Shown: piece by piece, positions 9,001-15,321 of the stretch
Layout: the number at the start of each line of letters is the position of its first letter
Position numbering within the stretch: position 1 is the stretch's first letter
Position numbers: made by a program
Assembly (NCBI GenBank): GCA_046262595.1
Contig: JBHEMM010000016.1
Span: forward strand, 1-15,321
Reading direction: 5' to 3'
Origin: Vulcanimicrobiaceae bacterium
GTDB lineage: Bacteria > Vulcanimicrobiota > Vulcanimicrobiia > Vulcanimicrobiales > Vulcanimicrobiaceae
DNA: 15,321 nt

Positions 9001-12000
9001 TGTACGCGATGATCGACTGGCACGTGGTGAAGGCGGCGTCGTAACGAGCCGGACCACACCCGGGGCGAAAAAGAAAGTGCGGCGGCCTACGTTGCCGTCG
9101 AGCTTTCTTTTTTTTCCTGGCCTTCTTCCAGATCGATCAGATCGGTCCACGTACGGGCCGAGTCGTTTCCCGGATCGATGCGTTCGAGTTCGTCGCAGAA
9201 CTGACGGTGTTCTTGTTCCCCTTGCGGCTCGTTGTTCTCAACCCACGCGTTCATGCGTTCGATCTTCTCGCGCTCCGGCCGCACGAGCTCGTGAATCCAC
9301 TCCAAGATGCCCGCGTCATCGCGCGCAGTGCGGACCGCGTCTAAGAACTCGTCTTCCGTAACGCCGAGTGTGTTGAAGAGCTTGAGGTTGAAGCGGCAGC
9401 CGTAGTACACGTAAGAGCCAAGCGTTCCGCCGAGCTGGGCGCGCGCCTTATCGACGGCGCGCGCTAAAATCGAGATTCCGTCGAGTTGCTCGCGGGGGCT
9501 GCGAGGATACTCTTTTGTGAGGTTCATGCCCGCCATGTTCCCGCTTTTGCGCGCCACGCGCGCCCGATAGGACGAAGGGGTAGCAACAAGGGGCGAACGC
9601 GCCTTGGGGAGCGTACGTTAGACCGTCGTACGGCACAGCGGGGTGTCGTATGGTGTTCTTGCCGGTCAGCGACCGGCAAGGAGGACCTATGTACGAAGCA
9701 CCTCACGTCATTGCAACGTTCGACGCCGGCGAACTCCTAGGCGAAGCTTATGGGGGCAACCCCGGTTGCGGCAATGAAGGCAATGGCTTACCTGTCGGCA
9801 ACGGCAGCTGTCACAGCGTCGTGTGACGCACCTGGGGCGCATCAGAAAGGTGCGTCCCACAGTGCGGCCTCTGGCTACTTTACCCTAGGCCGCATCGGCT
9901 TAGCGTTTCAAACGCGGGACGCCTTGAGCCAAGCACTCGCTTGCCGCGCCTTCGCGCCGCTAAGCTGCCGCACGACGCTGCCGGCCGAACTGCATCATGC
10001 GGAAATTTTTCCGACCGCCGCAGGGCTGACCGGTCGTTTTAACGGCGTCGAGCGCCGGTACGCGATGGCCGGCGATCCGTTCGGCGCGGCATTCGACGCC
10101 GTGCGCGACGTCTTTGCGCAATTCGCCGCAACGGCGTCTGGTGACGGCGCGTATCACGGCGCGACCGTTGCAATCGCCGGCGCAGGAACCGTACTTCTCG
10201 GCGACGCAACCGCCGGAAAAACGCTGCTCGCACTCCATCTCACCGCGATGGGCGGCTGCTTTTACGGCGATGAAACGTTTTTGTTCGACGGCGAGAACCG
10301 CGTCGTGCGGGCGATGCCGCGCCTGCCCGCGCTGCGCGAACCAGCCCTAGCGCTTTTACCCGACCAAGCGATGCGTCGAGCCGTCGAGGGGGCGTTGAAC
10401 GTCGCTGCGCGCCCGGGAGGACGCTTGTACTACGCGCTCGAGCCGCACGAGCTCTGCGGCATTGCGCCCGACCCCTCGCCCCTGCCGCTGAAAAACGTTA
10501 TTCTGCTGCACGGCCGTGCACGCCATACGCGGTTGGAGCGTCTAACGGTAAACGGCTTGCTCGCCGCGTTCGTGCGCCGCTCGTACGTTAAGCCGGCGGA
10601 TCTGCGCGCGCTTGGACGGATACGCGCCGCATTGCATGGCGTGCGCGGATACCGTTTGATTGCCGGAGCGCCCGCGCAGACAGCACAACTGATCGTAAAG
10701 GAGCTTACGCGATGCACGTAATCTCCGCGCGCGAACTGCAACGCGGAGGCGACATGGCGCATCTGCGGCAAGGCGCGCCGCAATCGGTTGCGCTTCGCAT
10801 CGCGCAGATTGGCGTCCGCATTGAAACCGCCGTTCCGGGCCTTGCTGCGGAACTTGCATTGCGTTATGCCGGTCATTTGGACGAGCGGGCGCCGGACTTC
10901 GTTTACCGCATCTTCCCCTCACCGCAAGGTTACGCGTTCTGGTGCGATCACGACGGCGCGTGGCAATGGAAAGCCGGTTCTCTGCCGCTGGATGCGATCG
11001 CATTTCTCGCCGATGCCGCTATGCTCTCGGCGCTCGTGCACTTCGATCCGCTTCTCGCTTCGGTGCATGCAGCCGCCGTCGCCGCGCACGGCTGCGCTGC
11101 GGCCATCGCCGGAGACTCGACTGCCGGAAAAACAACGACGCTGCTGGCGTGCGCGCGCGCCGGACTGCAAGTCTATTCGGACGAACGGGCGTTGGTGCGC
11201 CAAGGGATCGTCCATTCATTTTTGCGCCGCTGCTCGGTGCGTCCGGACGGGCGCAGCCGCTTGCTGGCCGACGACGACGCCGACGCACTGGCCCACGCGA
11301 TGCATGCCCGCGGCGATATTGCGCTTGCAGCGGTGTTCGGTGAAGCCGCTGTCGCACCGCCGCTTGCGCTGCGTGCACTGTTCGTGCTCGACGGCTATGC
11401 GGCGCGGCCGTTCATCGAACCGATCGACGCAACCGCGGCGCTGCCGGCCGTTTCGCGGTGGTTCGACACTTGCGGCGGCGCGATCGAACGCACCGCGCGT
11501 GCGCTGGGCCTGCTGCGTTCCCTGCACTGTTTCCGTTTGACGCTGGGTACGCCGCGCGAGAGCGCTCTTGCCGTGCGTGAAACATTAGAGCAGCTCGCAT
11601 GGCGTTAACCGGCAACGCAAGCGCAACGACGAGAGCCGCATTGGTCCGGATGGCCGCAAATGCTGCCGCTCACGCGCGCGTCGTGATGCGCGGCGGCAGC
11701 ATGGCTCCCGACCTGCGCGAAGGAATGACGTTAGAGATCGCTCCGCCGCCCGAACGCATTCGTCGCGGCGCCATCCTTGTATTCTGCGCCGGCGCGCGTC
11801 TGGTCGCGCATCGCGTCGTTCGGGTTGAAGGTGCGGTCGCTGTCTGCTCGGGCGACGCGCAGCCCGAATGTATTGAGCGGGTGCAGCGCGGCGAAATCGT
11901 CGGCGTGGTTCGCGCAGTGTTCACGCCGGGCGGCGCCCGCGTCGACAATCTGGCGTTTCGCATGCGCGGCAATGCGCGCTCGCTTTCTCACCGCGTCCGT

Positions 12001-15000: not shown

Positions 15001-15321
15001 AACGACTTCTCCGCGCTCGACGGTAAAGCCGATATCTTCGAGCACGGGCACGCGCTCGCCCGGGCGCAGCCAATGCCCCTTGCGAAATGCCTTTCCCAGC
15101 CCACGAACGTGCAGCACGCCTTGAGCATACTTGACGCGCGGTGTCCTACTTAAGCGGCCAAGGGGCCCATGCCTTAGTCTTTTAGCCCTCCGGCAGAAAC
15201 GATCGCGCTGTGCAATTGCAGCAAGCGTTCCTGCGCCGGTATTCGGGGCTCGCGTCGCTGCACGCGGAAAAGGACGAAAAACAGCATAAGGGCAACTGTG
15301 CTTTTCTTGCCGACGTAGCTC

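Follow-up and report, generated by a model that had tools for sequence, protein, structure and literature searches.

In 2026, Popov et al. (Nat Commun, PMC13381572) described the linear polyphosphorylated peptides (LPP) of Bacillota, which are encoded by the lppA-K-B-S-D-N cluster of Paenibacillus alginolyticus DSM5050. There, LppS, an archaeal-type signal peptidase with the residues S29/H68/D93, removes the leader of linear peptides that are bound by a RiPP recognition element (RRE) and phosphorylated by an HprK kinase, as established with deletions and mutants. Ser3 of the core is phosphorylated, leader cleavage needs both the signal peptidase and the RRE, and mutation of the Ser-His-Asp set abolishes cleavage. 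The nucleotidyltransferase (NTase) of the pathway showed no activity, and the phosphates are kept in the product. The supplement assigns lppK to TIGR04352, lppS to TIGR02228, lppN to PF14907, lppB to a discrete lasso-type RRE and lppD to TIGR02204 (MsbA_rel), and places PbaN of published clusters in PF14907 as well. Popov et al. place the clusters for LPP and paeninodin within capsular polysaccharide loci, suspect additional glycan-type modifications and call LPP restricted to Bacillota; the supplements, as available, hold no Eremiobacter or Vulcanimicrob entries.

Phosphorylated and phosphoglycosylated lasso peptides include paeninodin (PadeK) and pseudomycoidin (PsmK/PsmN), with PsmN adding hexoses to phosphoserine (PMC8498205). 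Here, we analysed a window of 15,321 nucleotides from a Vulcanimicrobiaceae bacterium (contig JBHEMM010000016.1), in which the survey's finding had placed a lasso-type precursor peptide within a new RiPP route.

Organisation and recurrence of the cluster

The cluster (9689-15117) comprises a peptide gene, two HprK-like kinases (K1 and K2), a 504-aa signal-peptidase::PF14907 fusion, a PqqD-type RRE and an ABC-2 exporter (Table 1), a gene set already listed in the survey and borne out by open reading frames and family matches. The first four genes run on the + strand and converge with the PqqD, permease and ATPase genes on the - strand, an orientation that the survey leaves unmentioned; the 3' ends of the PqqD and fusion genes overlap tail to tail by 14 nt. 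The start of K1 is uncertain, with in-frame ATGs at 9750, 9774 and 9783, each overlapping the 3' end of the peptide gene. The Pfam matches reported earlier were reproduced exactly (Hpr_kinase_C E 0.0032, NTP_transf_5 5.7e-25 and Peptidase_S24 0.0068 over residues 23-104, plus PqqD, ABC2_membrane and ABC_tran).

Table 1. Features of the cluster, with positions along the window.
Feature	Position	Strand	Remarks
Shine-Dalgarno-like AAGGAGGA	9678..9685	+	read from sequence; ends 3 nt ahead of the ATG at 9689
Precursor peptide gene, 45 aa, MYEAPHVIATFDAGELLGEAYGGNPGCGNEGNGLPVGNGSCHSVV	9689..9826	+	ORF
Predicted leader, residues 1-22	9689..9754	+	carries Y2-x-x-P5 and A20-Y21-G22
Predicted core, residues 23-45	9755..9823	+	
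Candidate phosphorylation site, most likely Ser40	9806..9808	+	in G-N-G-S
HprK-like kinase 1 (K1), optional paralogue	9750..10721	+	323 aa from longest start
HprK-like kinase 2 (K2), universal kinase of the cluster type	10712..11608	+	298 aa
Peptidase::nucleotidyltransferase fusion gene, 504 aa	11599..13113	+	
S26 (archaeal/ER type) signal-peptidase-I-like domain	11599..12033	+	fusion residues 1-145
Predicted catalytic residues Ser34, His71, Asp86	11698..11700, 11809..11811, 11854..11856	+	
PF14907 nucleotidyltransferase domain	12133..12852	+	fusion residues 179-418; Pfam NTP_transf_5
PqqD-type RiPP recognition element, 85 aa	13100..13357	-	Pfam PqqD
ABC-2 type exporter permease, 265 aa	13373..14170	-	ABC2_membrane 5.1e-17; DrrB-like
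ABC exporter ATPase, 316 aa	14167..15117	-	ABC_tran 2.5e-30; DrrA subfamily 4.2e-49

The recurrence described in the survey extends across Vulcanimicrobiota (Eremiobacterota), far beyond chance. By tblastn, kinase(s), fusion and PqqD occur together in 25 of 27 fusion loci (kinase in 26, PqqD in 25), and the permease and ATPase pair occurs in 19, with the permease alone in a 20th. Of the 26 loci with a kinase, 10 lack K1, and two of these 10, L062 and L063, are cut by a contig end. At least one YxxP peptide is present in 21/27 loci, five of the six misses being cut by contig ends. In two genomes of the same family, the cluster takes a split form, with peptide, kinase, peptidase, PqqD and NTase as separate genes. 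The cluster is real and conserved, and probably serves a small secreted modified peptide.

Enzymes, recognition element and precursors

K1 matches TIGR00679 (E 0.0019), Hpr_kinase_C (0.0032) and TIGR04352 (0.0071), and K2 matches TIGR04355 (1.4e-5) and TIGR04352 (3e-5), all kinase matches being weak (15-41 bits against 200-bit cut-offs). The K1 alignment (A3, 10 orthologues) keeps G-K-T of Walker A, D-E and two Arg. Among K2 orthologues, 15/16 match TIGR04352 at E<=1e-3, the best at 2.7e-9 and all far under the 200-bit cut-off; they retain the H..GxSxxGK[ST]T..SDE motifs, with H119, G139-K140, T142-T143, Y155-x-D157-E158, R172 and R177 invariant. In the PDB, the K2 profile scores best against HPr kinase/phosphorylase (E 0.042), the aligned stretch covering H..GDSxxGK..DD.

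The N-terminal domain of the fusion finds TIGR02228 (sigpep_I_arch) as its best NCBIfam model (1.6e-5, 24.8 bits against a cut-off of 51.85) and SEC11C (4.9e-4) and SEC11A (5.8e-4) as the best PDB matches of its profile, with S-M-x-P and H-R aligned. The fold proposed in the survey held up in an AlphaFold2 model (pLDDT 87.8, and 89.8 for the peptidase domain), in which Foldseek matched the N-domain to LexA, the lambda cI C-domain, SipA and SEC11A/C, and the C-domain to ANT(2'')-Ia (TMt 0.59-0.65) and MenT-type NTases. VIA-align of the peptidase domain returned S24/S26 proteins for all of the top 11 chains, among them SipA (Z 10.8), LexA (10.4), E. coli SPase I (9.2) and SEC11C (8.8), the next Z being 6.3. 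No hydrophobic membrane anchor is visible at the N-terminus of the fusion. The motifs S34-M35-x-P37, H71-R72 and G85-D86, singled out earlier as invariant, are invariant or nearly so in 13 full-length homologues. The catalytic base, which the survey had left open, is settled at sequence level, His71 aligning with the catalytic-motif His of human SEC11A/C, and Ser34, His71 and Asp86 are the predicted catalytic residues. Motifs and Ser/His/Asp set are kept in 20/21 N-domains, the sole exception being L050, which has Ser changed to Ala and His to Arg, a B2 protease gene 4.5 kb away and no YxxP peptide. The NTase domain (NTP_transf_5, 88.8 bits against a cut-off of 31.2) has K247-G248-A249, D266-x-D268 and E320 invariant, which we take to match the active-site pattern of Pol-beta-type NTases.

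The PqqD-type protein matches Pfam PqqD (1.8e-8), TIGR03859 (8e-6), TIGR04353 (2e-5) and lasso_PqqD_Strm (6.9e-4), and its profile finds PqqD (7e-6), the lasso proteins TfuB1 (3.5e-5) and TbiB1 (3.7e-5) and LppB (9x8z_B, E 1.1) in the PDB. Its N34 and D69 are invariant in 10 orthologues; in LppB, N33 and D70 fix the leader Pro and Tyr (Popov et al., PMC13381572).

A leader HMM separated 30 such peptides (E<=2.5e-7) from the next of 11,905 stop-to-stop segments (E 1.8). Their genes occur in up to three copies per locus, at an equivalent position across many genera; in the encoded peptides the N-terminal half is conserved and the tail varies. In alignment A5 (28 peptide sequences, the basis of all leader and core counts), Tyr and Pro of YxxP are invariant and a hydrophobic residue comes next. 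Position -3 holds Ala (23) or Val (5) throughout, and position -1 holds Gly in 21 peptides, Ala/Ser/Thr in five and Met in two. The cores have a median length of 12 residues (range 5-24; <=9 in 10/28), every one contains Ser, and Cys occurs in 16 of them and in no leader. A G-S dipeptide is present in 20/28 cores, a count reached by none of 10,000 within-core shuffles (mean 9.0) and inflated by the kinship of the sequences, while Ser at +3, the residue that is phosphorylated in LppA, occurs in 10/28 peptides, a count reached by 224 of 10,000 shuffles. In the window peptide, +3 is Pro instead of Ser, and the Ser residues come 18 and 21 positions past the predicted cut, so that the cut site or the phosphosite rule appears to differ in the subgroup formed by this peptide and those of L059, L040 and L042.

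Proposed pathway and alternative readings

We consider it quite likely that the cluster follows an LPP-type route to a linear peptide that is phosphorylated and exported. As we infer this route for the organism, from each chemical step to the position of the cut, the phosphosite and the reaction of the NTase, the PqqD-type RRE would bind the 45-aa precursor through its Y2-x-x-P5 leader, and the HprK-like kinase or kinases would phosphorylate a core Ser, possibly several times, K2 being essential and K1 an accessory paralogue. In most family members, the phosphosite would be the Ser of x-G-S, three residues past the cut, and in the window peptide most likely Ser40. The soluble Ser34/His71/Asp86 domain would cut the RRE-presented leader after [A/V]-x-G, here presumably A20-Y21-G22, a site that would conform to the preference of type I signal peptidases for small residues at -3 and -1. 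The fused PF14907 domain might add a nucleotidyl or glycosyl group to phosphoserine or the peptide, by analogy with pseudomycoidin PsmN, a decoration step without experimental precedent in LPP because the NTase showed no activity in the published work. The ABC-2 pump would export the product.

The survey's mechanism, leader removal by a serine peptidase and a phosphorylated product, is probably correct and has already been published for LPP of Bacillota. The claim of a new route is not supported, the same enzyme families operating in LPP (Popov et al. 2026, PMC13381572). What stands of the earlier interpretation is a RiPP-type cluster, free of cyclase and B2, with an intact Ser-His-Asp domain; with phosphorylated lasso peptides it has in common the recruitment of a YxxP leader by an RRE and the tailoring enzymes, kinase and nucleotidyltransferase. 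The lasso-type core and the new route find no support.

ABC-2/DrrAB-type transporters are typical of glycan export, and the peptide, rather than being a natural product secreted in free form, could also be a phosphoglycosylated carrier or primer that becomes joined to a cell-surface glycan or nucleates it. Kinase and NTase would then link a sugar to Ser through a phosphodiester, and the conjugate would leave by the ABC-2 (polysaccharide-type) transporter. Paralogous cassettes do lie in polysaccharide loci of the same genomes (contig C20 is an example), and the L050 locus contains GT1, GT2, a sugar nucleotidyltransferase, a sulfotransferase and a phosphoesterase. The capsular setting of LPP and paeninodin clusters and the transfer of hexoses to phosphoserine by PsmN (PMC13381572, PMC8498205) point in the same direction. 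No glycosyltransferase or sugar-activation gene was found at the window cluster in the contig stretch examined, however, and cores that are hypervariable and multi-copy are seen more typically in bioactive RiPPs, which makes this reading unlikely.

It is more improbable still that phosphorylation only activates, with phosphoserine converted to dehydroalanine and a neighbouring Cys adding to it (lanthionine-like, another thioether or a heterocycle) by class III/IV lanthipeptide logic. The cluster has no lyase or cyclase domain, and the published homologous pathway retains its phosphates (PMC13381572). In many cores the x-G-S Ser has Cys as its next residue (S-G-S-C, G-G-S-C, G-N-G-S-C), and Cys is confined to cores, but adjacent Ser and Cys are unable to form a normal lanthionine ring, and 12/28 cores have no Cys.

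The cluster is not a lasso system, although the YxxP leader and the B1/PqqD RRE, predicted to bind each other, are kept lasso traits. Lasso ring formation calls for a small first core residue, Asp/Glu at positions 7-9 and a tail of sufficient length for threading. Gly1 and Glu8, from which the survey read a lasso-type core, are shared by only 3/28 cores, namely those of the window peptide (23 residues), its 80%-identical orthologue and one more; only these three satisfy minimal ring rules, and ten cores have nine residues or fewer. The usual penultimate leader Thr, noted earlier as absent, is found at -2 in 0/28. Neither cyclase nor B2 lies in or beside the cluster, as the survey had found, and the genes beyond 15321 are housekeeping genes.

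That a true lasso cluster has its cyclase and B2 in trans, or in the unassembled 10% of the bin, is largely refuted and in our view highly improbable. The 2.4-Mb bin is 89.7% complete and holds one strong Asn_synthase match, on contig C9, plus two marginal ones (~21 bits). The C9 gene is an ordinary AsnB: it scores 413 bits with TIGR01536 (asparagine synthase), above the cut-off of 267, and 238 bits with NF033535, the lasso-cyclase model, short of the cut-off of 525. As previously stated, it lies in a polysaccharide locus, where its neighbours are genes for a glycosyltransferase, a sugar transferase (Bac_transf), a flippase and an aminotransferase of the DegT type. The sole Transglut_core3 (B2) match falls in the B1-B2-NTase cassette on C20, which speaks for this reading but likewise has no cyclase (PqqD, HprK-like, two GT2, B2, NTase, flippase-epimerase). 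Among 25 published fusion-bearing genomes, PF00733 finds nothing at E<=1e-5 in 20, PF13471 (B2) nothing at E<=1e-3 in 13, and neither model matches in 10 (completeness 82-96%); the genomes bearing on this point include the single-contig G145 and the 96%-complete G059, G063, G120 and G095. Clusters of this type should not carry the lasso label.

The last reading, a chance ORF or regulatory leader with the enzymes acting elsewhere, would suit a peptide with no Pfam or NCBIfam match, but is rejected on peptide conservation, as 30 homologous small ORFs, sharply apart from other segments, occupy an equivalent position in many genera, always with an RRE gene nearby.

Comparison with known systems

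With SipW, Sec11 and archaeal type I signal peptidases (MEROPS S26B), the peptidase domain shares its fold, the S-M-x-P, H-R and G-D motifs, the Ser-His(-Asp) set and, by prediction, the -3/-1 small-residue specificity; unlike these enzymes, it is apparently soluble and NTase-fused, and is predicted to act on a leader bound by an RRE in the cytoplasm, not on a Sec signal peptide. The HPr-rel-A system (TIGR04352 kinase A, TIGR04355 kinase B, TIGR04353 PqqD-family chaperone) likewise pairs two HprK-related kinases with a PqqD-family protein. Its models are the best or near-best NCBIfam match for K2 and a good match for the PqqD protein, but all remain far below cut-off (K1 15.5 and K2 23.3/24.4 bits against 200; PqqD 25.4 against 35), and to our knowledge the system as modelled has no signal-peptidase component. 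Phosphorylated lasso clusters share with the window cluster an HPr-kinase homologue that acts, here by prediction, on a Ser of the leader-bearing precursor, a partnering NTase, an RRE of B1 type and a leader with [Y/W]xxP, and B2-NTase fusions in some Firmicutes lasso clusters offer a precedent for the fusion, an S26-type domain taking that place here (PMC8498205). Unlike them, the window cluster has no cyclase and no B2, an S26-clan serine peptidase standing against the transglutaminase-fold cysteine protease of lasso clusters, and most cores are not ring-capable.

The likeness to LPP (PMC13381572) extends to the YxxPx[V/L] leader, variable C-terminus and one to three precursor genes per cluster, the discrete PqqD-type RRE, a putatively HprK-related kinase (matching TIGR04352 far below its cut-off), the PF14907 NTase, an ABC exporter, the lack of a macrolactam cyclase, a signal peptidase I of archaeal type with a Ser/His/Asp set (here by sequence and fold) and, in a third of Vulcanimicrobiota peptides, a Ser three residues past the cut. 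The differences lie in the phylum, in the joining of peptidase and NTase in one polypeptide, in the frequent presence of two kinase paralogues and in the lack of a co-resident lasso cluster. The exporter is a two-gene ABC-2 permease and DrrA-like ATPase rather than an MsbA-like pump. From Tyr to -1, the leader spans 20 residues rather than 15, ending in [A/V]-x-G instead of F-E-T, and the remainder of the LPP motif, HQxIxFETxxS, is not common to Vulcanimicrobiota peptides. Cores are Cys/His-rich and 5-24 residues long, whereas whole LPP precursors have 35-200 residues.

The window RRE resembles LppB (E 1.1) no more closely than it does PqqD or the lasso B1 proteins of actinobacteria, so parallel assembly could explain the likeness instead of common descent with LPP. 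Tentatively, a lasso-derived set of RRE, kinase and NTase may have taken up an archaeal/ER-type signal peptidase independently and in parallel in the Eremiobacterota clusters, rather than by transfer of LPP from Bacillota, yielding a distinct class of ultra-short (about 5-24 residue) Cys/His-rich x-G-S(-C) phosphopeptides for which the fusion would couple leader removal to phosphoserine nucleotidyl or glycosyl transfer. If so, the products could act in metal binding or signalling, and the fusion would let the PF14907 reaction, silent in published LPP work, be read out. Several predicted cores have only 7-9 residues, a size at which mass spectrometry would readily track the chemistry of the kinase and of the PF14907 enzyme. 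Within the phylum the module shows plasticity, with fused or split peptidase and NTase, one or two kinases and, in L050, the only fusion locus with a B2 gene a few kb off, a peptidase domain that is catalytically dead.

A cyclase-free signal-peptidase pathway was thus already published in 2026 for Bacillota, and the present clusters add another phylum, not a new pathway. With respect to LPP, the phylum, the peptidase-NTase fusion, the one or two kinases, the ABC-2 exporter and the very short Cys/His-rich cores differ, and LPP logic, that is RRE-guided Ser phosphorylation and a signal-peptidase-type protease with no cyclase, would extend from Bacillota to a largely uncultured soil phylum.

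Layout of the cluster and its recurrence

The cluster spans about 9.68-15.12 kb of contig C16, whose first 15,321 of 48,567 bases form the window. The contig belongs to a 2.4-Mb bin, 89.7% complete, that related records assign to Vulcanimicrobiota (Eremiobacterota), Baltobacteraceae. We set these limits, with neither a lasso cyclase (Asn_synthase-like) nor the lasso leader protease B2 (Transglut_core3) adjoining, because the flanking genes are unrelated: DUF5069, GAF-hemerythrin, NusG, L10 and L7/L12 genes lie upstream, and genes for an ECF sigma factor, a SpoU methylase, CysS, IspDF and other proteins lie beyond 15321. 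Pfam and NCBIfam searches of the window and of the contig genes past 15321 found no cyclase or B2 beside the cluster. The gene content described in the survey's finding was confirmed, and every one of its Pfam rows was reproduced. A promoter and terminator scan of 9000-15321 returned signals at chance level only, and a search for sequencing runs that could show expression listed none.

Coordinates of the cluster genes and of the other loci discussed (window positions unless a locus is named)
Feature	Position	Strand	Remark
NusG homologue	4958-5812	-	284-aa ORF
GAF-hemerythrin protein	6475-7398	+	307 aa
Precursor peptide ORF	9689-9826	+	45 codons; preceded by AAGGAGGA
Kinase 1 ORF	ends 10721	+	weak but consistent HPr-kinase-type matches
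Kinase 2 ORF	10712-11608	+	weak but consistent HPr-kinase-type matches
Fusion ORF	11599-13113	+	504 codons; peptidase::nucleotidyltransferase (NTase)
PqqD gene	13100-13357	-	convergent with peptide-kinase-fusion genes
ABC-2 permease	13373-14170	-	convergent with peptide-kinase-fusion genes
ABC ATPase	14167-15117	-	convergent with peptide-kinase-fusion genes
Fusion of locus L050 (G262:C3:1432500-1452499)	9188-10828	-	peptidase::NTase
Split locus L068 (G232:C2)	5835-8843		separate peptidase and NTase
Split locus L069 (G121:C92)	5344-7150		followed as far as PqqD
Second cassette of the window genome (G000, C20)	~37.8-42.6 kb (L058:7801-12547)	-	cyclase-free

Over 10700-13100, a GC3-based gene caller chose antisense ORFs through the kinase 2 and fusion genes, and gene calls there were set by homology instead. 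The third-codon-position GC excess is weak in this stretch (kinase 1: GC1 0.71, GC3 0.70), unlike in the flanking housekeeping genes, which may reflect either Ala/Arg/Gly-rich proteins or a foreign origin. The longest kinase 1 frame begins within the peptide gene, its in-frame ATGs at 9750, 9774 and 9783 overlapping the final 44-77 nt of that gene in a different frame, and direct reading of the sequence found no in-frame start codon in the ~75 nt after the peptide stop codon; this arrangement suggests overlapping, possibly coupled, translation. Among the upstream genes, the NusG homologue matches TIGR00922 (5e-65) only from residue 112 and may carry an N-terminal extension of ~110 residues or start later, and the protein that joins a GAF domain to a hemerythrin HHE cation-binding domain, unrelated to the cluster, probably senses small molecules or O2/NO.

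Of 301 sampled genomes of the phylum, which are bins related to one another and in part incomplete, 53 (four of them unpublished) match the fusion at E<=1e-10; the match covers both domains in 25 published genomes, which come from just two families of one class. Gene content by tblastn in 27 fusion loci (L008 included) comprised at least one kinase in 26, a PqqD gene in 25 and an ABC-2 permease-ATPase pair in 19, with one further locus matching the permease only; the PqqD-exporter block differs in orientation between loci. In ten of the 26 loci with a kinase, tblastn finds no kinase 1; two of the ten (L062 and L063) are truncated by a contig end. A split architecture is found in two genomes of the same bacterial family: L068 encodes, in order, a peptide, one kinase, a stand-alone peptidase (~150 aa), PqqD and a stand-alone PF14907 NTase, the last assigned by Pfam for L068 only, since tblastn traced L069 no further than PqqD. 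Neither of the stretches covered gave a tblastn match to an exporter.

The peptidase::NTase fusion, the kinases and the PqqD protein

The first 100 residues of the fusion retain G-x-S-M-x-P, A-H-R-V and G-D-A-x-P, and its second half K-G-A...D-x-D...E-x-H, across 13 full-length homologues that share 33-44% identity with the window protein in the alignment. The best NCBIfam match of the N-terminus, TIGR02228 (archaeal-type signal peptidase I), lies below its curated cut-off, and the solved-structure sequences closest to the fusion profile are human SEC11C (E 4.9e-4) and SEC11A (E 5.8e-4), whose S-M-E-P and V-H-R motifs align with Ser34 and His71. The predicted structure has a pLDDT of 87.8 for the whole protein and 89.8 for the N-domain alone. 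Foldseek returned the neighbours already listed by the survey (LexA, the lambda cI C-domain, SipA and SEC11A/C for the N-domain; ANT(2'')-Ia for the C-domain), together with MenT-type transferases for the C-domain. With a Foldseek-independent aligner, the top eleven chains for the N-domain model were all S24/S26 (Z 10.8 to 6.5), and unrelated small barrels followed from Z 6.3. Because SEC11 profile matches, conserved motifs and structure comparisons concur, the peptidase domain is predicted to adopt an S26-clan fold and to carry the archaeal/ER-branch Ser-His-Asp set; the catalytic base, previously left unassigned, would be His71, as predicted from the alignment with SEC11A/C.

A word-indexed search scored no short stand-alone relatives of the N-domain; an exhaustive profile search matched 20,267 representatives at E<=1e-3, 1,418 at <=1e-10 and 56 at <=1e-30, and the ten stand-alone matches looked up (159-191 aa) bear 'hypothetical protein' as their sole source name. 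Complex prediction of the peptidase domain with PqqD and precursor gave a score that was not specific against one control.

For both kinases, 'HprK-related kinase A/B' models are the best NCBIfam matches. Kinase 2 keeps H119, a Walker A motif (G-x-S-x-x-G-K-[ST]-T), Y-S-D-E and two arginines across 16 orthologues, and its profile finds HPr kinase/phosphorylase as best solved-structure match over exactly those motifs, at an E-value of only 0.042; fifteen of the 16 match TIGR04352 at E<=1e-3, with scores below the curated cut-off. Kinase 1 keeps the Walker A and D-E motifs and lacks the His. Equivalog-level membership in the HPr-rel-A system was rejected, since all the HprK-related kinase A/B matches fall under the curated cut-offs. 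The PqqD-type protein, the predicted RiPP recognition element (RRE) of the cluster, has an invariant Asn34 and Asp69 and is about as close to PqqD as to TfuB1 and TbiB1, two lasso B1 proteins (E 7e-6 to 4e-5).

Precursor peptides and the lasso question

Run against 11,905 stop-to-stop segments, a leader HMM recovers 30 small ORFs at E<=2.5e-7, and the segment ranked after them scores E 1.8; as the seeds of the HMM came from the same loci, only this gap is informative. With so many homologous ORFs and so wide a gap, a chance ORF was rejected. One to three peptide genes occur in 21 of the 27 fusion loci; in five of the remaining six the contig stops at the first kinase gene or just before reaching it, and the sixth is L050. 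All 28 aligned peptides share the Tyr and Pro of YxxP; the Tyr+18 residue is Ala (23) or Val (5), and Tyr+20 is Gly (21), Ala (3) or otherwise Ser, Thr or Met. Beyond it lie variable tails with a median length of 12 residues (range 5-24); Gly, Ser, Cys, His and Asn are over-represented in them, and Ser is present in every one. The G-S dipeptide appears in 20 of the 28 tails, a count reached by none of 10,000 within-tail shuffles, although kinship among the sequences overstates this contrast; the third residue after the conserved Gly is Ser in ten peptides. The L068 and L069 leaders end in A-L-A, and their cores begin with Ser and contain C-T-S.

We place the predicted cut of the window peptide after Gly22, because the [A/V]-x-G pattern corresponds to what type I signal peptidases require at positions -3 and -1. 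In a subgroup formed by the window peptide and those of L059, L040 and L042, G-x-P follows the predicted cut and an x-G-S motif lies further downstream; here either the kinase would follow x-G-S wherever it is placed, with Ser40 as candidate site in the window peptide, or the cut would adjoin x-G-S.

At L050, Ala replaces the catalytic Ser of the peptidase domain and Arg the His, the triad being kept in all 20 other N-domains. The leader HMM finds no YxxP peptide at this polysaccharide-type locus, which holds PqqD, GT1/GT2, sugar nucleotidyltransferase, HAD, phosphoesterase and sulfotransferase genes, and a B2 protease gene lies 4.5 kb from the fusion. This degeneration agrees with the serine peptidase and B2 being alternative leader peptidases.

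The survey had taken the precursor for a lasso type and noted that a cyclase and B2 could act in trans. Only three of the 28 tails could formally satisfy the minimal ring rules: the window peptide's, that of its G241 orthologue (80% identical) and one from G059. No leader carries the penultimate Thr. An Asn_synthase-family match at E<=1e-5 is absent from 20 of the 25 published fusion genomes and a Transglut_core3 match at E<=1e-3 from 13; ten genomes lack both (completeness 82-96%). Where present, B2 lies on another contig or 15-18 kb off, adjoining an NTase-only paralogue. The one strong Asn_synthase gene of the window genome scores above the cut-off of the asparagine synthase model but below that of the lasso cyclase model, and its neighbours are polysaccharide genes. 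We therefore rejected a lasso system with a trans-acting cyclase, and with it the lasso-type core.

The same genome holds a second cyclase-free cassette on contig C20, encoding PqqD (142 aa), an HprK-related kinase (TIGR04352 1.5e-10), two GT2 proteins, a B2-type protease, a stand-alone PF14907 NTase and a flippase-epimerase fusion. Neither pattern nor HMM found a YxxP peptide in it, and similar B2-NTase pairs recur in many genomes of the phylum.

Comparison with linear polyphosphorylated peptides

Linear polyphosphorylated peptides (LPP) were defined in Bacillota, with the precursor leader YxxPxVLxHQxIxFETxxS (Popov et al., Nat Commun 2026, PMC13381572). According to the deletions reported there, the kinase places up to four phosphates on core Ser3 and the peptidase, aided by the RRE, cleaves after Thr-1; the transferase had no detectable effect, and N33 and D70 of the RRE LppB hold the Pro and Tyr of the leader. 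The authors hold that LPP do not extend beyond Bacillota. Some signal peptidase-RRE pairs from other phyla nevertheless appear, undiscussed, in their supplementary tables, Supplementary Data 1 giving RRE-linked signal peptidase homologues in Schekmanbacteria, Chloroflexota, Pseudomonadota and Actinomycetota; these tables hold no Eremiobacterota entry. The Bacteroidota entries of about 745 aa in Supplementary Data 1 look like peptidase::ABC-exporter fusions.

Literature searches combining lasso, HPr kinase, NTase and PqqD, or RiPP and signal peptidase, gave no description of this cluster type. Among the matches listed, nothing relevant was found for HprK-related kinase, HPr-rel-A, PF14907 or NTP_transf_5, nor for Eremiobacterota with RiPP or lasso, and 'linear polyphosphorylated' returned Popov et al. 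alone.

We read the window cluster as a probable LPP-type pathway because it shares with LPP the enzyme families, the recruitment motif, the absence of a cyclase and, in a third of its relatives, Ser at +3; all kinase and peptidase family matches lie below curated cut-offs. The mechanism put forward in the survey's finding, in which a serine peptidase removes the leader and the product is phosphorylated, is probably right; its claim of a new route does not hold, as a pathway with the same enzyme families is already published in Bacillota (PMC13381572).

Several features set the two apart. The PqqD-type RRE of the window cluster shows no greater detectable similarity to LppB (E 1.1) than to lasso B1 proteins, so that the cluster may share its descent with the Bacillota family or may have been assembled in parallel. 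Most fusion loci carry a second kinase paralogue, and the window cluster has an ABC-2 exporter. Peptidase and NTase are covalently fused, whereas two genomes of the same family keep the peptide-kinase-peptidase-PqqD-NTase genes split. The leader is longer and ends in [A/V]-x-G, and the cores are very short and Cys/His-rich. Judged by its gene content, the window cluster is thus best described as a variant of the published LPP-type pathway in another phylum, Vulcanimicrobiota (Eremiobacterota) rather than Bacillota.
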